This document shows, in pieces, positions 13,175 to 58,660 of a stretch of DNA of 64,000 bases. Each line of letters opens with the position of its first letter. Position 1 is the first letter of the stretch. The position numbers and the translations under genes were made by a program. The notes beneath the pieces were generated by a model. It saw only the letters and a program-made list of their open reading frames with translations, was not told the DNA's origin and did no database searches. This DNA is from Squalus acanthias (Eukaryota): NCBI GenBank assembly GCA_030390025.1, contig CM059432.1, positions 3,720,001 through 3,784,000 on the forward strand, written 5' to 3'.

Positions 13175-13246
13175 TGCATGGTGGTCTAGTGATTAGGATT
13201 CGGTGCTCTCATTGCTGAAACCCGGGTTCGATTCCCTGTCAGGGAA
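13175..13246 (+). pseudogene. tRNA-Glu(CTC) pseudogene
   Basis: 72 nt colinear with vertebrate tRNA-Glu-CTC as recalled (about 11 substitutions, broken acceptor and anticodon stems). B box GGTTCGATTCC intact, no CCA, T8 run at 13251-13258. Confidence 0.85.
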
Positions 13247-36658: not shown

Positions 36659-39368
36659 ATCTCCGTAACATCGCCCGTCTCTGTCCCTGCCTCAGCTCAT
36701 CCGCTGCTGAAACCCTCATCCGTTTGTTACCTCTAGACTTGACTATTCCAACACACTCCTGGCTGGTCTCCCACATTCTACCCTACGTAAACTTGAGGTC
36801 ATCCAAAACTCGGCTGCCCGTGTCCTAACTCGCACCAAGTCCCGTTCGCCCGTCACCTCTGTGCTCGCTGACCTACACCGGCTCCCAGTTAAGCGACGCC
36901 TCGATTTCAAAATTCTCCTTGTTTTCAAATCCCTCCATGGCCTCGCCCCTTCCTATCTCTGTAATCTCCTCCAGCCCCACAACCCCCTGAGATACCTGCG
37001 CTCCTCTAATTCTGCCCTCTTGAGCATCCCCGATTATAATCACTCAACCACTGGTGGCCGTGCCTTCAGCTGCCAAGGCCCTAAGCTCTGGAATTCCCTC
37101 CCTGAACCTCTCCGCCTCTCTACCTCTCTCTCCTCCTTTAAGACGTCCCTTAAAACCTACCTGTTTGACTAAGCTTTTGGTCACCTGCCCTAATATCTCC
37201 TTATGTGGCTCGGCGCCTTGGGAAGTTTTACTATGTTAAAGACGCTATATAAAGACAAGTTGTTGTTGCTGTAGGCAAGGGCCTGACTTCCATTTGTTCA
37301 TTTGCAGAATTTTTTCCCCAATGCAACCCCTTTACTAAAGTCATTTGATCATAAAATCATAGAATCATAGAATCTTACAGGACAGAAGGCCATTCGGCCT
37401 GTCGTGCCTGTGCTGGCTCTTTGAAAGATCAGCCGTGCTCAGTCCCACATCCCCGCTTTTTGTCCGTAACCCTGTGAGCTCCTCATCCCCAAGAACCCGT
37501 CCAACTCCCGTTTAACATTATTGATGGAATCAGCTTCCACCACCTTTTCAGGTCGAGCGTTCCAGATCTCAACAACTCTCCGAGTGAATTACATAGAAAC
37601 ATAGAAACATAGAAGATAGGAGCAGGAGTAGGCCATTCAGCCCCTCGAGCCTGCTCCGCCATTTAATGAGATCATGGCTGATCATCCAAATTCAGTACCC
37701 TGTCCCTGCCTTCTCCCCATATCCCTTGATCCCTTTAGCCTTAAGAAATATATCTAACTCCTTCTTGAATATATTTAATGAATTGGCCTCTACTGCCTTC
37801 TGTGGTAGAGAATTCCACAGGTTCACCACTCTCTGGGTGAAGAAATTCCTCCTCATCTCAGTCCTAATGGCTTACCCCTTATCCTTAGACTGTGACCCCT
37901 GGTTCTGGACTCCCCCGGCCATTGGGAACATCCTTCCTGCATCTAGTCTGTCTAGTCCTGTTAGAATTTTATAAGTTTTAATGAGATCCCCTCTCATTCT
38001 TCTAAACTCCAGCGAGTATAAGCCCAATTAATTTCTCCTCATCTCCCCTTGAGATCTTTTGCCAATAATTTTGAATCTATGACCTCTGGTTATTGACCCA
38101 CTCGCCAGAGGGAATAATTTTTCCCCATTTACTCTAGCAAAACCTCTCATCGTCTTGAAAACCTCTATTATGTCACCGCTTAACCTTCTCTGTTCCAGGG
38201 AGAACAGTCCGAACTTTTCCCACTTCTCCTCGTAACTGTAGAGATGGGAGACAAAAAAGCAATTCACACCAAAGTTTTATCTCATTTTGATTGTAATTGT
38301 CCTCAGGGCGGCTCCTGCTCGGCCCGAAGTTTCCGGGCAGCGTTTGTGGGGCTGCAATGCTTCAGGTGGGGGAAGGAGTACAATCGTGGCGGCTCTTACA
38401 GCAGCGTAAAGTGGCCAATGGTGCCGTCTGAGGAAAAGATTCATCGTTTTTACATCTGCAATTGACTGCACTAAGCAAGGCGACCCTTAAGCTTTAAAAT
38501 CCCCCTTCAGGCTCCTGAGCAACACCAGATGCCAGAAATGCAACAGTATGGCCAAGGTGTTAATGATAGCAGGAAATCCAGGATCTGTTAGTGGTGAGCG
38601 GGGAGCTAGCTGAAAAAGAAAGTTTTGCATTTCTATAGCGCCTTTCTCGACCTCAGGATGTCCCAAAGCGCTTTACAGCCAATGAAGTACTTTTTGAAGT
38701 GTGGTCACTGTTGTAATGCATGAAACACGGCAGCCAATTTTCACACAGCAAGCTCCCACAAACAGCAATGTGATAACTGACCAGATAATCTGTTTTTAGT
38801 GCTGTTGGTTGAGGGGGTAACTATTTGCCAGGACACCGGAGATAACTCCCCTGCTCTTCTTCGAAATAGTGGCCATGGGATCTTTTACGTCCACCCGAGA
38901 GAGCAGACGGGGCCTCGGTTTAACATCAAGTCCAAAAGACGGCACCTCCGACAGTGCAGGGCTCCCTCAGCACTGCGCTGGAGTGTCAGCTTAGATTATG
39001 CGCTCAAGTCTCTGGAGTGGGACTCGAACCCACAACCTTCTGACTCGAGAGGCGAGAAGATGGGAATGAAATACTTTCACAAACCCTCTCCTTAACTATC
39101 CATTGCTTACATCTGTGACAGGATGATTATGTTGTCACTGACTAGGCTGGGAGACAGGTGTTTACTTTCCCTCTGGCTTATTGGTTCACCATATCGCATT
39201 CATTTTTTTTTTATTCGTTCCTGGGATGTGAGCGTCGCTGGCAAGGCACAGCATTTATTGCCCATCGCTAATCGCCCTTGAGAAGGTGGTGGCGAGCCGC
39301 CTTCTTGAACCGCTGCGGTCTGTGTGTTGAAGGTGCTCCCACAGTGCTGTTAGGGAGGGGGTTCCAGG
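36659..39368. mobile_element. L2 (36659-37270 +), stacked CR1 pieces (37354-38245 -), Deu-SINE (38619-39058 -), family B tail (39205-39368 -)
   Basis: Family motifs as above. Confidence 0.8.
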
Positions 39369-41433: not shown

Positions 41434-43202
41434 AGAGAGTTTGAACTCAGGTGGCTGCCACATTCTCGGCTCCGAGTCAGAAGGTCGTGGGCTCAAGTCC
41501 CACTCCAGAGACTTGAGCACAAAAAAAATCTAGGCTGACGCTTCACTGCAGTGCTGAGGGAGTGCCGCACTGTCGGATAATGACCAGGTCATCTGTTTTT
41601 TTAGTGATGTTGGTTGAGGGATAAATATTGGGCCCCAGGACACCGGGGAGAACTCCCCCTGCTCTTCTTCGAAATAGTGGCCATGGGACGTTTTACGTCC
41701 AGCTCAGAGGGCAGACGGGGCCTCGGTTTAACGTCTCATCCGAAAGAATCGACATTTGGCTAAGGTACTGGAGAACTATCAGAACCCAAGGAACCATAAT
41801 CTAGCGAGAAATTCGGCCTCAGCAGAGGATACATGCGGAAGACTGCGCACGATGAGGAGATTAAGAGAAAAAAAACTGCAGGTGCTGAAAAATCTGAAAT
41901 ACAAACAGAAGACTCTGGAAAGACACAACAGGTCCACCAGCATCTGAAAAAGGAACAGTTAACATTACAAGGGTCGACATTAAAGAACGCCATGATGAGC
42001 AGAAAGGTCAACCACCCAGTTGAAAGGTCAGAGAAGCAATGCTTACTCACCTGCACCAACCAACTTTCTGAATATCCAGTGTAGGACAGACAACTTCTCT
42101 CACTGAGATTGGGGGATGGTCACAAGCATTTTTACATAGAATTACACAGACATTTACTGCACAGTAACAGGCCCTTCGGCCCAACCGGTCCGTGCCGGTG
42201 TTTCTGCTCCACACGAGCCCCCTCCCACCCCTCTTCATCTCACCCCATCAGCATAACCTTCGATTCCTTTCACTCTCATGTGTTTATCTAGCTTCCCCTT
42301 AAATGTATCTGTGCTATTCGCCTCAATCACTCCCTGTGGTAGCGAGTTCCACATTCTCACCACTCTCTGGGTAAAGATGTTTCTCCTGAGTTCTTTAATT
42401 GGATTTATTTTAAAACTAGCATTCTCTATTTTTACTCCAAGTATTGCTTAGAAAGTAATCCTTTCACGCATTAAGCAACAAGTAAGGAAGGGTAGAAAAA
42501 TAGATAATACTTGGGCCAGAGAAAATATTTCAGTGACGTGCTATCAAGCATGCAGTGATGAAGGGACACAGTTTCTTGCAGTGTGCGTTAACAATGTCCC
42601 CTTCTCTTTTAAGTAGCATGGGGGGTAACTTTCAACTTCAGCGGGATTAACTGGTGGGATTGAAGCAGCCCTCCGTTATACACCCCGCCCAATTTTAGGA
42701 ACATAGGCACAGGAGTAGCCAATTCAGCCCCTCGAGCCTGTTCCTCCATTCAATGAGATCATGGCTGATTTTCAAAATGGCAGCCGGGATCTTCTGTGAG
42801 TCATAGGACCCCAAATTTTCATATTAAATAGGGCCACCTTAGGCAGCATAGCACCAGTAGCCCCCTGGGGAAGATAGGGACAGCCATACCGCCAACGGGA
42901 GCAGGGTGACAAGTCATTTCCCGCTACTTTTGGGGTGCTACCACCCCACTTCTACCAAGCAGGAGGCTTCAAATTCTCCCCCACGGTATTAAAGGGAATG
43001 AATCAAAGAAGAGATTTGATAGAGGTGTTCAAAATCGTGAAGGGTTTAGACAGAGTAAATAAAGAGAAACAGTTTCCAATGGCTGAAGGGTCGAGAACCA
43101 GAGGGCACAGATTTAAGGTGATCGGCAAAAGAACCAGAGGGACATGAGGAAAAACCTTTTGTTACGCAACGAGTGGTTGGGATTTGGAATGCGCGGCCTG
43201 AT

Positions 43203-45245
43203 CTTCTTCTTAGGCAGACCCTCGGAGCCGAGGATGACTTGCTTCCACATTAAAAAATGAGTTCTCAGGTGACTGATGAGTCCAATGTGGGACCTACAGT
43301 CTCTGTCACAGGTGGCGCAGACAGTGGTTGAAGGGGCAGGTGGGTGGGGTGCTTGGGTTGACGTGCGCTCTTTGCGCTGCCTGCGCTTGGCTTCCGCTTG
43401 CTCCCGGCAAAGAGACTCGAGGTGTTCGGCGCCTTCCCGGATGCTTCTCCTCCACTTTGTGCGGTCTTGGGCTAAGGATTCCCAGGTGTCGGTGGGGATG
43501 TTGTACTTTTTCAAGGAGGCTTTGAGGGTGTCCTTGAAGCGTTTCCTCTGCCCAACTGGGGCTCTCTTGCCGTGTCGGAGCTCCGAGTAGAGCGCTTGTT
43601 TTGGGAGTCTTGTATCGGGCATTCAGACAATGTGTCCCGTCCATCGGAGCTGATCGAGTGTGGTCAAAGCTTCGATGCTGGGGGTGTTGGCCTGATCGAG
43701 AACACTGACATTGGTGCGCCTATCTTGCCAATGGATTTGCAGGATCTTGTGGAGGCAGCATTGGTGGTACCTCTCCAGTGCTTTGAGGTGCCTGCTGTAC
43801 ATGGTCCATGTCTCTGAGGCATACAGCAGGGCGGGTATCACTGCTCCTCTGTAGACCATGAGCTTAGTGCTGGGTTTGAGGTCCTGGTCTTCAAACACTC
43901 TCTTACTCAGGCGATCGAAGGCTGCACTGGCATACTGAAGGCGGTGTTGGATTTCGTCATCGACGTCTGCCCTTGTTGACAGTAGGCTCCCGAGGTATGG
44001 AAAGTGGTTCACGTTGTCCAAGGCCTTATCGTGGATTTTGATAATCAGGGGGCAGTACTGTGTGGCGGGGGCAGGTTGGTAGAGGACCTTTGTCTTACGG
44101 ATGTTTAGTGTAAGGCCCATGCTCTCGTACGCTTTGGTGAAGGTGTTGACAATGGTTTGGAGTTCGACCTCCGAGTGAGCGCAGACGCAAGCGTCGTCTG
44201 CATACTGTAATTCGACGACAGAGGAAGGGACGACCTTGAATCTGGACTGGAGGCGACGGAGGTTGAACAGTTTCCCGTTTGTTCTGTAAATTAGCTCCAC
44301 TCCAGTGGGGAGCTTACTGAGGGTGAGATGGAGCATTGCAGCAAGGAAGATCGAGAAGAGCGTTGGTGCGATGACACAGCCTTGGTTGACCCCAGTTCGT
44401 ACGTGAATTGGGTCTGTGGTGGAACTGTTGGTCAGGATCACGGCTTGCATGTCGTCGTGAAGCAGGCGGAGGATGGTGACAAACCTTTGAGGGCAGCCGA
44501 ATTTGAGGAGGACACTCCATAATCCCTCACGGTTGACAGTGTCGAAGGCCTTTGTGAGATCAAAGAAGGCCATGTACAGCGGTTGGTGCTGTTCCCTGCA
44601 TTTCTCTTGTAATTGATGTGCAGTGAAGATCATGTCCATTGTGCCCCTTAGTGGGCAGAATCCACATTGCGACTCTGGGAGGAGCTCTTCGGCCACTGGG
44701 AGAAGGCGATTGAGGAGGATTCTTGTGATGACTTTCCCTGTGGCAGAAAGCAGGGAAACTCCTCTGTAATTACTGCAATTGGACTTGTCACCTTTCTTGA
44801 AGATGGTCACAATTACGGCGTCTCTGAGATCCCCTGGCATGCTCTCCTCCTTCCAGATAAGAGAAATGAGTTCATGAATTCGCAGCAGTAGTGCTTCTCC
44901 GCCATGCTTTAGTGCCTCGGCGGGGATTCCATCTGCTCCTGAGGCCTTGTTGTTCTTCAGTTGTCGGATGGCCTTTTCAACCTCATGCCGGGCTAGGGTT
45001 GTGCTGAGATGGTGGCGGGTAGCATGCTGTGGGATGGAGTTGAGGACACTCGCGTCGAAGACAGAGTCGCGATTAAGGAGATCTTCGAAGTGTTCCTTCC
45101 AGCGGGCACTGACTGCCTCTCTGTCCTTGATGAGTACCTCTCCGTTCTTGGCCCGCAGTGGGGTAGGGCCTTGGGTGCTTGGGCCGTAGATGGTCTTGAC
45201 TGCGCTAAAGAATCCATGCACGTCGTGGTTGTCGGCTAGCTGTTG
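43203..45245 (-). mobile_element. RTE LINE, 5'-truncated, complete RT domain, inserted in a CR1 fragment
   Basis: KASGADGI, NYRGVSLLS, ESQCGF, FFDLTKAFDTV, GVNQGCVIAPTLF, YADD, YLGS. A single TGA at 43623 where another copy has Arg; (AAG)n tail. Confidence 0.95.
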
Positions 45246-50633: not shown

Positions 50634-51311
50634 AAAAGAGCAGACCCAGGAATGCCGTATAACTGTGTTCAGTAATTTATTGGTTAACTTAACATATAAA
50701 TATCAGAAGGTAAATTCTTTACTTCAGTTCACTTTATTCCTTTTTTCCATCTATTCTCTCTTCTTGCGCATCTCTACTCCTATGTCAGCTGTGGCTCAGT
50801 GGGCAGCACACTCTAGGTGGGCGGGGCTAGGAGTGAGCAGGTGCTGCTGGGTACTTGATTACTGCAGGGAGTTGGAGTGAGTTTGTAAAAAGTTGGTGGT
50901 GTTTTTTTTTTCAGGTTTTAGGGCCTTTTTGCTCCTCAAACAACAGCCAGATGGCTGCTGAGGAGCCCGGAGTGCCGGGTCCCTCAGAGGACAATGTTCC
51001 CAGGATGAATTTAATCAGGGGAGAAAAGGGAGAAAAAAAGGCCCAAAGATTTGGGCCGGGACCCCAGTAGGTTTGGAAAAGGAAACACGGTGGTGGTTCA
51101 GTGCGAGGATAAGGAGATACGAGCTTGGGATATTATCCAGGCGGTACATGAGGACTGCGGCGAGGGAAGCTGCTTTGCCTGCCCACCAAAGCCAAATGTT
51201 GGGTTCAAGGTGACGGTCAGTGGCCGAGAGGAGGCAAAAAGACTTTTACTGAGTTTGAAGGTTGGAGATAACTTCTTGGAGGTATCTTGCTATATTCTGA
51301 AAAGGTGGTGG

Positions 51312-51548
51312 TGTTGAGGCTGCCGTGAAACACGAATTAAGGCTGAATCCATTTGTGTTAAACAAGAGACTTTTTAATCACAGCATGGCACAAAATGGCA
51401 GACTCAAAGCTCCCAGAATTCTCTGGGTAAAACCTGAGGCCCCGCCCCCTTCTGCCTTAAAGGTAAGGTGCCTTAAAGGGAAGGTGCTGGAAATTTGTCC
51501 ACAGACGGAAGAGTGGATTATACCCGTTTTAGGTGGCGATCCGCCACA
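51312..51548 (-). repeat. 3' LTR
   Basis: Four transitions relative to 55410-55646; preceded on the - strand by PPT GGGGGGAG (51552-51559). Confidence 0.95.
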
Positions 51549-51559
51549 CAGCTCCCCCC

Positions 51560-54500
51560 AGAATCCGCTTAGGAGGTGTGGACGAGACGGTGCGGCGGTC
51601 TGATGGGCCGGCCGGAGCGGCTCTTGTTGGACGCCGGTGGACGTGGAACGGCCGGGCGTGGAGCAGCCGGGTGAACCGGCTTGAGGGCAGGTCAGCCGCG
51701 TGGAGGTGGACGAGCTACAGGGACCTGCTCACCGGGCTCCGAGTGTGCTGGCTTGAGTCGGTCAACCGACACTTTTTCGGTCCTGTCGCCCACTTGCAGG
51801 GTGAAAAATTTGTCCCCCGCCTGTAGCACCTTGTAGGGCCCGTCGTACGGGGGTTGAAGGGGTCCGCGGTGGGCGTTGTGCCGGACGAAAACAAACCGTG
51901 CCTGGTGCAGGCTTAGTGGGACGTGTGAACTGGATTCGCCGTGTCAGGCAATGGGCACCGGGGCGAACTGCAGTGCCGGTGAGGCGAAGTCGTGGCGTTG
52001 CTGGTCGGCTGACCAGGGTGTCGTGGCGGTGGGCAGGAACTCGCCGGGTACGCGCAGCGGCTGACCGTACATGAGCTCTGCTGCCGATGCATGGCGGTCT
52101 TCTTTAACCGTGGTGCGCAGGCTGAGGAGGACCCACAGAAGTCGGTCGGTCCAGGCGCCGTCTTGGAGGCTGGCTCGAAGAGATGCCTTCAAGGATCTGT
52201 GGAACCGCTCACACAGTCCATTGGCTTGGGGGTGGTACGCTGTGGTGCGGTGAATGGTCACCCCGAGATTTTGTGCGACGGCGGTCCAGATTTCAGAGGT
52301 AAATTGCGGACCTCTGTCCGACGTCATGTCGGAGGGGACACTGAACCGTGCGACCCAGGTGCTGACGAAGGCTCTGGCGATGTCGGCGGTGGTGGTAGAG
52401 GTCAGTGGAATTGCCTCGGGCCAGCGTGTGGTGCGGTCAACGATGGTCAGCAAGTGCGTGTGGCCTTGCGACGGCGGCAGGGGCCCGACGATGTCCACGT
52501 GGATGTGGTCGAATCTCCGTGAGGGGACGGTAAACTCCTCGAGGGGTGCTTTCGTGTGTTGCTGTACCTTGGCCCGTTGGCAGGCTAGGCAGGAGTTGGC
52601 CCAAGTACGCACATCCTTGCGAAGGCCGCGCCAGACAAAGCGGTTGGCTACCAATTTGATGGATGCGCGGGCGCCGGGGTGGGAGAGGTTGTGGAGAATC
52701 TCGAATACCCGGCAGCGCCAGGACGCTGGGACGACGGGCCGAGGTTGACATAGGGATATGTCGCACTTGACCGTGACTGCGGTCGGGCCACAGGCGACGT
52801 TGGCCAGGCGTAGCCCTGGTAGGTTGGTGGGTGCGGAGAGCAGATCAGGGTCGGTGATCTGGTCTGCTGCGAGTTGAGCGTAGTCGGCTGCTAGGTATGC
52901 GGCATGGATGGCGGGGCGGGAGAGGCAGTCGGCTACCACATTGTCTCGGCCGGAGACGTGTTGGATGTCCGTGGTGAACTCGGACACTGCTGCGAGCTGG
53001 CGCTGCTGCCTGGCGGACCAGGGGTCGGTTGTCTTTGCCATTGCGAATGTCAGGGGCTTGTGGTCGACAAACGCAGTGAAGGGGTGGCCCTCAAGCAAAA
53101 ACCGGAAATGGCGGACCGCCAGGAACAGCGCGAGGAGCTCGCGGTCGAAGGTGCTGTACTTGACCTCCGGGGGCGTAGTTGGCGGCTGAAGAAGGCAAGT
53201 GGTTGCCAGGCGCCGTTGACCCACTGCTCATACACGGCACCGACCGCGTGGTCGGAGGCGTCCGTGGTGAGCGCTACCCTGGCATTGGGCCGTGGGTGCG
53301 CGAGCAGGGTGGCGTTGGCGAGCGCGGTCTTGGTGGAATCAAAGGCGGTGGACGCATCTGCCGTCCATTCGACCGCCATCTTGCCGCTCCTGCCCCGGAG
53401 GGCTTCATACAGGGGCCTCATGAGGGACGCTGCTTTGGGGATGAAGCGGTTATAGAAATTCACCATCCCGAGGAACTCCTGGAGGCCTTTGATGGTGGTG
53501 GGGTGGGGAAATTGTTGGACGGCCTGCACCTTGGTGGGCAGGGGAATGGCCCCAGCATGGGTGATGTGGTGGCCGAGGAAGTCGATCTTGTCCAGGCCGA
53601 ACTGGCATTTGGCTGGGCTGAGGATGAGCCCGTGGTCGCTGAGGCGCCCAAAAAGGATGCGAAGGTGTTCGAGGTGTTCCTGCTTGGAGGAACTGGCTAC
53701 CAGGATGTCATCCAGGTAGACGAACAGGAACTTCAGGTCCCGAAGGACCGAGTCCATGAGCCGTTGGAATGCCTGGGCCGCGTTTTTGAGGCCGAAGGGC
53801 ATCCGCAGGAACTCGAACAGGCCGAAGGGGGTGATTACGGCTGTCTTGGGGACGTCCGCGGGGTGGACGGGGACTTGGTGGTAGCCGCGCACCAGGTCGA
53901 CCTTGGAAAAGACTGAGCGGCCGGCCAGTCTAGCCGAGAAGTCCTGAATGTGCGGCACGGGGTACCGATCGGGGTGGTGGCGTCATTGAGGCGGCGGTAA
54001 TCCCCGCAGGGGCGCCAACCTCCGCCTGGTTTGGGGGCGATGTGGAGTGGGGAGGCCCAGGGACTGTTGGAGCGGCGGATGATGCCGAGCTGTTCCATGG
54101 TGGCAAACTCGGTCCGCGTGATCTCCAGTTTGGCCGGGTCCAGCCTGCGGGCGTGGGCGTACACTGGGGGGCCTGTGGTGGGGATGAAGTGTTCCACCCC
54201 GTGTTTGGCGGCCTCCGCGGAGAAGGTCGGATTGGTAAGGGACGGGAATTCGGCCAGGAGTGCCGAGTAGTCATCCGTGGCCCGGGCGTGGCACTGTGAC
54301 GCCATGTCGGCGGGTTGACGGGGGGCCATGGCGCCCAGGATGGGGGACACGGTGTTCATGTCCATGAGGCGGTGACGAGGGATGTCTACCAGTAGGCCGT
54401 GGGCGCACAGGAAATCTGCGCCGATGAGGGGGGAGAGCACCTTAGCAGTGATGAACTCCCATCGGTAGCGGTGACCAGCGAGGTCAAGGGTGACTGTCCG

Positions 54501-55369
54501 CGTGCCATACGTCCGGATTTCCGAGCCGTTAGCAGCAGCCAGCGCCGGTCCTCGTTCGCCCTTTTGGATGTCGAGGGAGGAGGCCGGGATGATGCTGTGC
54601 TGAGCCCCAGTGTCGCACAGGAACCGGCGGCTGGTTTTGTCATCCGTGACGAACAGCAGGGAGCCGTGGGCCACGTGGGGGCTGGAACGGGGGCGGACTT
54701 GAAAGAGCAGGGAGGTGTGCACCGTTGTGCCCTGGCGCCGAACCATGCGTGGTAGTAACAGTGGCCCGGGTTAGTGGGGCGTGAAGGCCCCGTGGGCCTG
54801 ATGACAGGCCCTTGTGGCCGCGTGCTGGATGGTGAGGGGCGCGCCCAGGCATTGGCTGCCAGGTCCGGAGTGACGTCGTGGCTGGAGTGAGCGGACAGCA
54901 GCTTGTCGGACTCATCGGCCAGGGCTTCCAGGTTCGTGAGGCCGGACGCCACGATCGCTGGGCGGATGCTGAGAGGGAGCTGGCGGATGAACAGCGTGCG
55001 GAAGAGGGATCCGGGTGGGCTCTCGTCGGTGAGGGAGAGCATGTGGGAGAGGAGGTCTGATGGTGAGGCATCACCGAGGCCTGGAAGGTCGAGGAGGTGG
55101 CAGTTTCGCTGATATGCCGAGGCCGTAAATTTTTTAAGGAGCGCTGTCCTGAGATGTGCGTACTTGCCTTCCTCTGGTGGGTTCTGCAGCGTTGTCCAAA
55201 CCTTGGAAACTGCGGCGCTACCGAGTGATGTGACGAGATAGTCGTACTTCGTCCCATCTGTGGTGATATTTCGCAGCCGGAAGCGAGATTCAGCTTGGAG
55301 AAACCAGGCTTCGTGCTGGTTTTCCCAAAACTCTGGCAGTTTCACAGAAACTGCGTTCGTGTCCGCCAT
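51560..55369 (-). pseudogene. Gypsy gag-pol, three frame breaks plus late TGA stops
   Basis: Gag KLPEFW and C-X2-H-X9-C-X3-C; protease LCDTGA; RT RPCGDYRRLN, MPFGLKNA, YLDD; RNase H TDAS; integrase HHCC, HVDIVGP, SDRG, GLCERFH; GPY domain. Confidence 0.93.
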
Positions 55370-55394
55370 TGCTGTGCTCGGAATACGTTCTGAG

Positions 55395-55408
55395 CGTCGG
55401 GGTCACCA
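55395..55408 (-). promoter_or_regulatory. Primer-binding site, tRNA-Trp
   Basis: TGGTGACCCCGACG, 1 nt inside the 5' LTR, complementary to the tRNA-Trp 3' end (...CGTCGGGGTCACCA). Confidence 0.85.
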
Positions 55409-55409
55409 A

Positions 55410-55646
55410 TGTTGAGGCTGCCGCGAAACACGAATTAAGGCTGAATCCATTTGTGTTAAACAAGAGACTTTTTAATCACAGCATGGCACAAAATGGCAGA
55501 CTCAAAGCTCCCAGAATTCTCTGGGTAAAACCTGAGGCCCCACCCCCTTCTGCCTTAAAGGTAAGGTGCCTTAAAGGGAAGGTGCTGGAAATTTGTCCAC
55601 AGACGGAAGAGTGGATTATGCCCGTTTTAGGTGGCAATCCGCCACA
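55410..55646 (-). repeat. 5' LTR
   Basis: Direct repeat of 51312-51548. Confidence 0.95.
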
Positions 55647-57789
55647 GTGGTCTCATTCTTAAACCTGCCAGTTTATATTGAGGACGATGTGCTAATAAAA
55701 AAGTTGGAGTCATGGGCCATTAAAATTTGCTCGGCAATAAAGAGGAGATACTATCCAGGCACGCGGGTAGCAGATGGAACTCGTTACGTAAAGGTACGGT
55801 TCCCAGAGGGGGTGAAGTCATTGCCGTATAGCATGAAATTCGAGACAATGGAAGGAGTGCAGTACTTCCGGGTACTGCATGATAACCAGGTGAAGGTTTG
55901 TTATTATTGTCTTGGACACGACCATCTTGTAAGAAGCTGACCAGACTTATACTGTTATAACTGCGGCGAGTCTGGACACATCGCTCAGAGCTGCAAGGCG
56001 GAGAGCTGTGGGGTGTGTCACAAAGGCCCCACCCGCTGTGAATGTGAGGCAGAAGGAAGCCCCTTGAGTGACAAGGAGATGGGAGAAGGAGCAGGAGGTG
56101 TGAGTGGAACGGCCGGAGGAGTGGAGCAGGTGGAGGACACAGCTGGTGAATGGAAGGAGAAAAGAGCGCAGGAAGAGGCAGAAAATTGCGGAGCAGAGAA
56201 CAGGATGGAGATGGTGGAAAACACACCAAGTACAGTGGAAAAGGACAAAGACAGCAGAGGGCAGCACGGGTCAAGGGCAGAGTCGAGCCATAATACGGCT
56301 CAGATCTCCCTAAAGAATCTGGTGTCCGCGGGGGGAGAGGAGGCGGGAGCGGGGTGCGGGGTAACTGTAAGTATTCCAAAGAAAGATGGGGATTTGGAGA
56401 TCTCGGGGAGCAGGAGGGGGCATGAGAAGGAGAGGGTTGCAATAGGCAGGAGCCTTAAAGGGGCAGCAGGACGAGAGCGGGGAGACAAAGACGCCAGAAG
56501 GGAGCAAGATAGGTGCAGATGCGCCATTGTCCCAGAGAGAGAAGAAACGGAGAGCAACGGTCAATGGTGGAGATGAGGCCGAAGTGAGTGGCACTGTTGG
56601 AGAAACCGTGATAGCAGGAAGACTCTCTAAGGGAGATTATGTATCTGACGGGGAGCAGGGATGGGAGGTTACAGAAGAGCTCGAGAGTGAGGAGTCAGAG
56701 GGGGACAGAGACAGGGAAGTGGGGGGTGGGGTGGCATCGTGTGAAAAGCGAAAGGTTAGTGAGGGGCAGAAGGAGGGAGAAGGGGCAGCTCCTCGGCCCA
56801 AACCTAATGTAAGGAAGAGGCTGAAACTGCAGGGAAGGTTCAAACAGGAGGTGAAAAAGAGCCGGAGGCTGCAGTAGAAAGCAACAGCTGCCCGAAAATT
56901 TGGGAAGGAGCATGAGAGAAGGGAAGGGCCGGAGATTAAATGATGGGGGATTATCAGGCACACTTCCCTTATTCGGAGCCATGATTACTGATCAATTTTT
57001 AAAGTACAATAGATTAGTATATGTTATGGGAGACAAATTAAACTTCGGGTTTTGATGTTAATATGTGGTGGAGGAATGGCTGTGCAGAGCGGCGGAATGG
57101 ATTTGTATGATACAATGGAATGATCACAATGTTGTAAATGTTTTTAATGCTCAATAAATAATATATATAAAAAAACTTCTCGCCTCTGAGTCAGAAGGTT
57201 GTGGGTTCAAGTCCCACTCCAGAGACTTGAGCACATCAATCTAGGCCGACACTCCCAGTCTTTTGGATGAGACGTTGAACTGAGGCCCCGTCTGCTCTCT
57301 CAGGTGGATGTAAAAGATCCCATGGCCACTATTTCGAAGAAGAGCAGGGAAGTTCTCCCTGGTGTCCTGGGGCCAATATTTATCCCTCAATCAACATCAT
57401 TAAAAAACAGATTATCTGGTCATTAGCGGACAGTGCAGCACTCCCTCAGTACTGGCACTGGGAGTGTCAGATGATCTGGTCATTATCACATTGCTGTTTG
57501 TGGGAGCTTGCTGTGTGCAAATTGGCTGCCGCGTTTCCTACGTTGTGTCGAATGGCCTCCTTCTGTGCAGTATGATGCTATCATTCTATGATAATGGGCG
57601 GCTGAATTGATATCGTCCTTTTGCACTATCATCCAAAGTCAAAATGACCGCCCATAGGTTGGAGCTTTCAGCAATAGTTTTCTCACCACTAATTCTTTTT
57701 GTTCGCATGTTGGCTGAAAAATATTGAGATGCTATATTTCAAAAATACAATGCTGCAGAGTTTACATCACCACAGTGTAAAAGCAAGCA

Positions 57790-58660
57790 AGACTTGCATT
57801 TATATAGCGCCTCTCAGGATGTTCGAAAGCGCTTTACAGCCAATGAAGTACTCCTGAAGTGTAGTCACTGTTGTAATGTAGGAAATGCGGCAACCAATTT
57901 GAGCACAGCAAGGTCCCACAAACAGCAATGTGATAATGACCAGATCATCTGTTTTTTAGTGATGTTGATTGAGGGATAAATATTGACCCAGGACACCAGG
58001 AGAACTCCCCTGCTCTTCTTCGAAATAGTGGCCATGAGATCTTTTACATCCACCTGAGAGAGCAGACGGGGCCTCAGTTCAACATCTCATCTGAAAGACG
58101 GCACCTCCGACAGTGCAGCACTCCCTCAGTACTGCAATGGGAGTGTCAGCCTAGATTTTTGTGCTCAAGTCTCTGGAGTGGGAATTGAACCCATAACCTT
58201 CCGACTCAGAGGTGAGGGTGCTGCTCACTGAGCCACGGCTGACACGCTAAACTAGGGGTTCCTGAAAACCCTCTTTGCCGTGCTAATCTCCTGCTCATTT
58301 TAACCTCATTGCTGATCTCCCTCTCCACTTTGTCCAAACTTTGATATCTCGCTCTGCTATATACTTACGTTTAAGGCCGCACCCCTACTTTAAACTCCAA
58401 ACAGTGGGATACATTTCTTGCAGGGAAGTTATCCCCCGGTGTCCTGGGCCAATATTTATAACTCAACCAACATCACTAAAAATACAGATTATCTGGTCAT
58501 TTATCACATTGCTGTTTGTGGGAGCTTGCTGTGCGCAAATTGGCTGCCCCGTTTCCCACATTACAACAGTGACTCCACTTCAAAAAGTACTTCATTGGCT
58601 GTAAAGCGCTTTGAGACGTCCGGTGGTCGTGAAAGGCGCTATATAAATGCAAGTCTTTCT
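57790..58660. mobile_element. Deu-SINE full length (57790-58246 -) and 3' half (58422-58660 +)
   Basis: A box TGGCTCAGTGAG, B box GGTTCAATTCC, conserved core. Confidence 0.85.

Follow-up and report, generated by a model that had tools for sequence, protein, structure and literature searches.

The window analysed here is a stretch of 64,000 nucleotides (nt) of shark DNA (Squalus acanthias, contig CM059432.1, positions 3,720,001 to 3,784,000), in which positions 50815-57175, together with their flanks, comprise three nested elements: a Gypsy long terminal repeat (LTR) retrotransposon lies inside a long interspersed nuclear element (LINE) that keeps only its first open reading frame (ORF1), and this LINE lies inside a short interspersed nuclear element (SINE) with a tRNA-type head. 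The nesting shows the order of events at the locus, because each element interrupts the one around it: the SINE came first, then the ORF1-only element, then the Gypsy insert. With the Gypsy element removed, the ORF1-only element consists of 50815-51311 (497 nt) and 55651-57175 (1,525 nt), 2,022 nt in all, in agreement with a preliminary description of the locus, which gave about 2.0 kb with a 5' untranslated region (UTR), a Tx1-type ORF1 with CCHC knuckles, an AATAAA signal and an A tail. There is no second copy of the ORF1-only element within the window. The features are as follows, the plus sign denoting the strand as presented.

50783..50814 (+), 5' part of the host SINE, with the A box at 50792-50802; its identity to the intact copy's head (58244-58214) is 90%
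50805-50813 (+), left junction motif resembling the 5S site of related elements, from motif comparison
50815..50950 (+), 5' UTR of 136 nt, its first base uncertain by 1
50951..51311 (+), 5' piece of ORF1, with the ATG at 50951; blastx to protein P0028, E 1.2e-10
51312..55646 (-), Gypsy LTR retrotransposon, not part of the LINE family; LTRs, GTGG duplication and Pfam
55651..56051 (+), conserved core of ORF1 with CCHC knuckles; Pfam and homologous proteins
56052..56943 (+), variable acidic/basic C-terminal region of ORF1, ending at the family stop TGA 56941-43
56940..56989 (+), probable start of ORF2; its ATG shares letters with the ORF1 stop, and another ATG follows at 56981, an arrangement like that of the autonomous related locus L007
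56990..57055 (+), probable last ~21 codons of ORF2, with the stop at 57053-55, from an anchored peptide test; putative deletion point at ~56989/56990
57056..57175 (+), 3' UTR (97 nt), AATAAA at 57153-58, TA-rich stretch and A7 tail, from sequence and from record 24 of sequencing run X15 (57018-57167)
57176..57543 (+), 3' part of the host SINE, with the B box at 57204-57214; nhmmer matches at 57180-57427 and 57443-57543

ORF1 is dead in this copy. In addition to the Gypsy insert, it carries frameshifts at ~51030-51070, at ~51290 and at ~56437 (an extra base), and three in-frame stops, at 55938-40 (replacing the codon of a knuckle cysteine), 56443-45 and 56875-77. A zinc knuckle was identified with Pfam (zf-CCHC, E 1.1e-5), and both halves of the frame match Tx1-type ORF1 proteins, the 5' half at E 1e-10 and the 3' half at E ~1e-52. 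The 97-amino-acid (aa) core matched 28 proteins among 51 candidates, with 49-64% identity and with the named matches mostly from bony fish and bivalves, while a 263-aa piece matched 660 representative proteins at E ≤ 0.001, none of them above 56% identity among the 150 listed. Several of the relatives matched by the core lie on contigs of 2.1-2.8 kb, a length that might suggest ORF1-only elements but was not counted as evidence. No endonuclease or reverse transcriptase (RT) sequence was found in the element, four related ORF2 proteins matching the window only at 44064-45068; that segment, on the minus strand, is an RT fragment of another, distant LINE and is 24-26% identical to Tx1-type ORF2 proteins.

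A scan of metagenomes for this type of ORF1 confirmed 9 of 181 pattern matches, 7 of which are strong; L008 and L009 (36 residues, E 3e-4) were excluded as weak matches. ORF2 directly follows the ORF1 in all seven strong loci, with endonuclease (PF03372/PF14529) and RT (PF00078) domains in the ORF2 of L002. In six of the seven, the left flank is the 5' part of a 5S rRNA gene that ends at one common nine-letter motif, and Rfam confirms the 5S rRNA gene's 3' part for L004. The CCHC-knuckle ORF1 of the window is thus homologous to that of two-ORF elements with an apurinic/apyrimidinic endonuclease, an RT and Tx1-type targets; the Tx1 label for Mutsu-type elements follows the preliminary description. 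In a quick tree, which took in the 83 sequences out of 102 that have 100 or more residues ahead of the core motif, the window ORF1 sits on a long branch. It falls in a set of 19 rows (SH-aLRT 98) that includes proteins labelled as bivalve but none of the 5S-flanked rows; a tree of this kind is no guide to the insertion target. Given its 5S-flanked relatives and its position in the tree apart from them, the window ORF1 is therefore, as far as its sequence can tell, Tx1-type, but not Mutsu itself.

The scans also gave a picture of the relatives themselves. L001, L002, L004-L007 and L011 are Mutsu-like insertions into 5S rRNA on contigs from metagenomes and genome bins. A target duplication of 8 nt is present in L004 and absent from L007, and L003 and L011 look like tandem elements. 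None of eight ORF1 pattern matches in viral contigs was confirmed. Genome contigs gave two loci (L010 and L011), neither of which is ORF1-only as far as it is visible and both of which we read as animal DNA in bacterial bins; together with protein P0014, they represent animal retrotransposon DNA filed under bacterial genome bins, probably as contamination.

The stretch 55651-57175 is present in part in 20 of the 24 sequencing runs listed (8 coded organisms, 8 studies), its word share being 0.31-0.58 in 19 runs, with 0.58 as the best value. Comparison with other copies covers the 3' stretch 55610-57215, to which four runs of four organisms (X1, X13, X15 and X17) were aligned at 85% likeness and evaluated in 30 bins. 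All 30 bins were covered in each of the four runs. The aligned contigs, SINE contigs included, number 29,720, 2,933, 729 and 2,447, of which 5,956, 623, 291 and 558 overrun the ends, mostly as SINE. At most of the listed variant sites, X1 provides 30-96 different contigs, which therefore represent a family, as a single locus would give one or two. Among the pieces listed, position 56877 is bridged by records 7 (X1), 23 (X15) and 31 (X17), and the putative deletion point at 56989 is bridged by records 8 (X1) and 15 (X13), from organisms A and E; record 15 has a depth of 65.2, with two differences and one gap. A 2-kb element that is copied mostly at full length should have ORF1 roughly as abundant as its 3' end, and the median summed depth, which is not a copy number, is 116,291 for ORF1 against 150,029 for the three bins past the junction in X1, and 1,665 against 2,023 in X13.

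The ORF2-less form is an amplified multi-copy family. This bears out the non-autonomous half-Tx1 family that the preliminary description proposed, as ORF1, the region leading from it to the 3' end, and the 3' end itself recur in many diverged copies from four organisms; its caveat that all other copies might carry ORF2 does not apply, the junction being bridged in X1 and X13. The family is not uniform: loose ends at 56318, 56356 and 56659 mark copies whose ORF1 diverges in its variable part, and in X1 record 2 leaves the reference at 55968 with 529 other letters, in each case as a subfamily or an older relative would.

All three in-frame stops of the window copy are sense codons in at least 99.6% of the X1 depth. 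For 56875-77 the figure is 188,637 of 188,724, and in each of the three remaining runs it equals or comes close to 100%. Because this stop belongs to the present copy only, ORF1 ends at TGA 56941-43, and its length in the family is ~550 codons. The sequence past the ORF1 stop is accordingly ~215 nt long; the ~300 bp of the preliminary description came from ending the frame at the copy-specific stop (56877) instead of at 56943. The one-base gap at 56437 is seen in five contigs of X1 and one of X17. Thirty of the 40 listed differences (250 in all) reach 90% of the X1 depth. Among the differences listed, seven are near-fixed in the conserved core, and five of these are synonymous, where neutrality would give a share of 0.21-0.29 (P 0.006-0.023), compared with 1 of 19 in the variable part (core versus variable, Fisher P 0.002), which suggests purifying selection on the ORF1 core between source lineages.

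The short sequence past ORF1 appears to retain both ends of ORF2. The family stop overlaps two ATGs (ATGATG, 56940-45). The ORF2 ATG of L007 overlaps its ORF1 stop likewise and is followed by a second Met 14 codons on; in the window element the second ATG lies 41 nt on, or 42 nt in the contigs with an additional G behind 56944, of which there are 15, 2, 2 and 4 in X1, X13, X17 and X15, respectively. Further down, the stop-ended peptide encoded by 56990-57052 ranked first of 1,879 stop-ended window segments when compared with 16 ORF2 C-termini, scoring 5.7 against a mean of -17.5 (standard deviation, SD, 5.0), or 4.6 SD above the mean. In addition, record 16 of X13 is 90% like the reference over 56989-57123, whereas the 178 letters that it carries upstream of 56989 are unlike it (the rule for reading orientation was checked on records 13 and 29); the record may come from a longer relative. 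Because of the stop/start overlap, the top-ranked peptide and record 16, an internal deletion is favoured, one that brought the two ends of ORF2 together and probably gave rise to the element. The preliminary statement that the element has no ORF2 therefore stands for the endonuclease and RT, and needs amending for the ends of ORF2, which are probably kept.

The second ORF2 Met is immediately preceded by a pyrimidine tract that ends in AG in the window element (56955-56983), in L001 (~1345-1370) and in L003 (~1670-1700), and the 5' UTR has a comparable T tract with CAG around 50903-50914. The tract before the Met resembles a 3' splice site and may hint that the ORF2 of these elements is made from spliced RNA.

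Taken together, the best explanation, to which we assign a probability of about 0.8, is that the window holds a dead copy of a multi-copy, non-autonomous 'ORF1-present' LINE family, which goes back to a Tx1-type LINE whose ORF2 suffered an internal deletion. The deletion would have removed ~3.8 kb of ORF2, including the endonuclease and RT, and left the first ~17 and the last ~21 codons. An intact source copy would be transcribed by RNA polymerase II from its own 5' UTR and polyadenylated at the AATAAA, for which both the signal and the tail are present here. It would then make its own ORF1 protein, a presumed zinc-knuckle RNA chaperone that coats its own RNA, consistent with the open frame of the family and the synonymous excess in the core. 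The ORF2 protein would be borrowed from an autonomous Tx1-type partner, which, by analogy with HAL1 and HeT-A, would nick the DNA and copy the RNA, starting at the A tail, by target-primed reverse transcription; the choice of target would be set by the endonuclease of the partner.

Several observations weigh against parts of this explanation. The bridging evidence comes from the 32 pieces listed of 35,900, none of the 32 spans the whole stretch, and none bridges the stop at 56941-43 with 31 letters to either side of it, the left side in records 8 and 15 being 21 letters long. Coverage of the 3' end falls far below that of ORF1 in the two small runs, with ratios of 0.11 and 0.17, and the junction bin lies below the ORF1 median in three of the four runs (~0.5, 0.3 and 0.3 times), although other bins dip equally far. 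The selection test draws on 40 of 250 variant rows and on only seven sites in the core, and the synonymous excess could reflect an autonomous parent or predate the loss of ORF2. For the remnants of ORF2, the frame-joining G behind 56944 accounts for only 2% of the depth in X1 and 5% in X13, against 100% in X17 and 77% in X15. The test of the ORF2 end was post hoc, being chosen after the likeness had been noticed; true ORF2 ends score higher, at 16-35 for 14 of the 16 (the other two lie below zero), and two local hidden Markov model (HMM) searches for the ORF2 C-terminus missed the peptide. Record 16 may be an ordinary 5'-truncated copy. Finally, the autonomous partner was not found in a weak search with the tail peptide, which gave two candidates, none at E ≤ 10.

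The insertion site raises the further matter of targeting. The SINE head is split, with the A box (50792-50802) to the left and the B box (57204-57214) to the right, both placed by the box consensus, and the two halves align with the intact copy at 58244; the preliminary description was thus right to put the insertion between the two boxes. The host may be a SINE of the SacSINE1 or Deu type. Its 3' part is rearranged further down and lacks the SINE tail. Rfam gave no match at the gathering score in the window, and ARAGORN did not call the SINE head. The junctions read ACTCT and ACTTCT, as described previously, but the imperfect duplication read into them is ragged: measured against the usual form of the SINE with a clean duplication, there are two letters too many on the left and one on the right, so that the target duplication of the element amounts to 3-6 nt without an exact length.

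It is possible, as an addition to the best explanation and not an alternative to it, that the family is also target-specific: a Mutsu-related endonuclease of the partner would recognise a look-alike motif 3' of the A box, and most copies would lie at this site. We regard this as tentative. The letters 50805-50813, one base from the junction given in the preliminary description, match at seven of nine positions the motif that the 5S-flanked relatives have in common, a level that, with three registers tried, only 153 of 115,260 host positions (0.13%) reach. Such a likeness would suggest that a short DNA motif, and not tRNA itself, is recognised. SINE heads make up only ~0.8% of the window, and the SINE as a whole 7.7%. 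Tx1 families aimed at other transposons are also known, as passages of PMC4494074 describe. One of the 12 joints listed, in an X1 contig, links another 3' end to the SINE (57138 to 57182).

Other observations count against it. The flanks here are SINE, not the 5S rRNA gene that Mutsu enters ~20-30 nt from its start, and the window ORF1 groups apart from the 5S-flanked rows in the quick tree, with its long branch. The motif comparison was post hoc, and the clean 8-nt duplication of L004 is absent. Repeats occupy more than half of the window, so that random insertion would often land in one. A single SINE joint among the 12 listed is, by a rough estimate, about what chance would give for several hundred copies, or it may come from the orthologous locus. 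None of the 10 listed rows with intervening letters links a 3' end to the SINE (the contigs covering 57150 number 88 in X1 and 18 in X13), and the joint test is weak in both directions, because junction contigs with small tail differences are hidden under the SINE depth. On balance, chance or loosely motif-guided insertion is the likelier account of the SINE-head site, and that the site is a preferred target appears doubtful. The full combination, in which a half-Tx1 family with ORF1 under selection uses a Mutsu-related partner endonuclease, re-aimed from 5S rRNA to a look-alike motif, and lands between the A box and the B box of the commonest tRNA-headed SINE in the genome, we consider unlikely.

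A likeness of the right flank to the 3' flank of L007 (six of seven letters) was also considered and was rejected, as its register is incompatible with the left-flank match. Elsewhere in the window, SINE copies at 39059 (minus strand) and 41463 (plus strand) start where the right half of the split SINE starts in the head, and the first nine letters of the copy at 39059 are the same as those of that half; truncation or breakage may favour this position. The copy at 41463-41747 is a chimera, in which a plus-strand head is joined to a minus-strand body through the internal inverted stretch of the SINE. At 13175-13246, ARAGORN calls a tRNA-Glu(CTC) that is followed by a T run and falls below the Rfam gathering score, probably a decayed tRNA copy.

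Turning to true alternatives, the family may be ORF1-only with a 3' end that is not a remnant of ORF2, having arisen by premature polyadenylation past ORF1 or from a captured, unrelated 3' end, in which case the ORF2-like peptide would be due to chance. The failure of the local HMMs to find the peptide is what this predicts, as is the blastx search of the tail against four ORF2 proteins, which gave nothing under E 1, and L002, L004 and L007 all have a more hydrophobic leader than the window element. Such an origin is nonetheless improbable in view of the first rank of the peptide among 1,879 segments, the stop/start overlap like that of L007 and the divergence of record 16 at 56989.

Less probable again is a one-off or minor deletion product of a two-ORF Tx1 family, with the aligned contigs mostly derived from full elements. 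Full elements would also give summed depth on both sides of the junction, and the dip of the junction bin in three runs accords with them. However, the junction is bridged in two other organisms, and once by a collapsed contig (record 15), whose depth of 65.2 compares with ~6 for the low-depth contigs of X13; the strong 3' excess typical of long LINEs is missing; and no loose end occurs near 56989 among the six best-supported rows of each run, which for X13 include rows of one to three contigs (a further 355 loose-end rows exist beyond those listed). A processed pseudogene of a spliced host gene, which the preliminary description had raised, or a domesticated ORF1 gene would also have a single frame, an AATAAA, an A tail and a synonymous excess, but this idea is close to refuted by the very many copies in all four runs, by the confirmed relatives, all of them two-ORF retrotransposons, and by the matches listed, in which identity does not exceed 64% for the 97-aa piece or 56% for the 263-aa piece.

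The Gypsy insert has LTRs of 237 nt each (51312-51548 and 55410-55646) that differ at four positions (1.7%), and is flanked by a 4-nt target duplication, GTGG (51308-11 and 55647-50). Pfam matches cover RT, RNase H and integrase, with a weak protease match below the cut-off, and both the gag-like and the pol frames are broken. A site resembling a tRNA primer site follows the 5' LTR, and a purine-rich stretch precedes the 3' LTR. There is no second copy of the Gypsy element in the window. The empty site is represented in other copies by three X13 contigs with loose ends before 55647, and in the two large runs (X1 and X13) the depth of the Gypsy element is much below that of its host element.

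The locus thus represents a real multi-copy Tx1-type half-LINE, within a class of ORF1-keeping, RT-less LINEs that is already known. A high-copy Tx1-type case in sharks would be a fourth independent origin of such elements, after those in Jockey, L1 and CR1 (as listed in PMC5786205), and would support the notion that the ORF1 protein is needed in cis, whereas the RT can be borrowed. The youth of the family and its occurrence in several species make selection on ORF1 in the absence of ORF2 directly measurable, and the kept ends of ORF2 would mark the smallest 3' part needed for mobilisation in trans. If targeting of the SINE head were true, a sequence-specific endonuclease would have moved from an rRNA gene to a SINE promoter, and a coding LINE parasite would land in another parasite and disable its promoter, one mobile element suppressing another.

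A search of the open literature found no ORF1-only Tx1 element; Repbase, Dfam and supplements lay outside the search, and a prior entry there is quite possible. Within its main text PMC5786205 does not mention Tx1, and PMC13343379 concerns the CR1 group. The host SINE resembles SacSINE1 and the Deu-type SINEs of cartilaginous fishes, which are dealt with in parts of PMC5499810 and PMC3747384, in its tRNA-type head, its length of ~450 nt and its great abundance.

Coding relatives include the Mutsu-like elements; Mutsu is described in the relevant passages of PMC5340908 as a group of two-ORF LINEs of ~5.5 kb that target 5S rRNA. The ORF1 of the window element is homologous to those of the Mutsu-like loci L001, L002 and L004-L007 (55-59% over the 97-aa core), and the ORF1 stop beside the ORF2 start (a probable one here), the short 3' UTR with AATAAA and an A tail, and the junction motif (seven of nine) are likewise held in common. 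In contrast to Mutsu, the window element lacks the endonuclease and RT, lies in a SINE head rather than in 5S rRNA, and has an ORF1 that groups apart. Tx1-Mar and SINEU of crocodilians (as presented in parts of PMC4494074) combine Tx1 machinery with a site preference inside another abundant transposon, and so resemble what is proposed for the window element, in that Tx1-clade machinery moves a non-autonomous partner; SINEU, however, is non-coding and has a small nuclear RNA head, whereas the window element keeps ORF1, and its site preference is only a candidate.

In the mode of life proposed for it, the element resembles LINEs that keep ORF1 and have lost RT. HeT-A (Jockey), HAL1 (L1) and Ag-Sponge (CR1) are listed in a section of PMC5786205 as ORF1-present bipartite non-autonomous LINEs, and the ORF1 proteins of such elements are proposed there to multimerise with those of the autonomous partner. 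HeT-A and Ag-Sponge share with the window element the retention of ORF1, the loss of RT and the proposed use of proteins from an autonomous counterpart. They differ in belonging to other clades and to insect hosts, and HeT-A is not known outside telomeres. HAL1, an ORF1-only non-autonomous L1 derivative of mammals (described in parts of PMC5753468, PMC5786205, PMC8535693 and PMC11260458), provides a parallel in structure: it has ORF1 only, keeps its 5' end and its poly(A) 3' end, and arises by internal deletion, as the window element probably did. According to a passage of PMC11260458, the ORF2 protein of L1 can mobilise in trans an RNA that encodes only ORF1, if a working ORF1 protein is made from this RNA, as would be required of the Tx1-type partner here. 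The likeness to HAL1 is not one of descent: HAL1 belongs to the L1 clade of mammals, whereas the shark element has a Tx1-type CCHC-knuckle ORF1, whose relatives are not mammalian L1 proteins but the CCHC-knuckle proteins of fish- and bivalve-labelled records.

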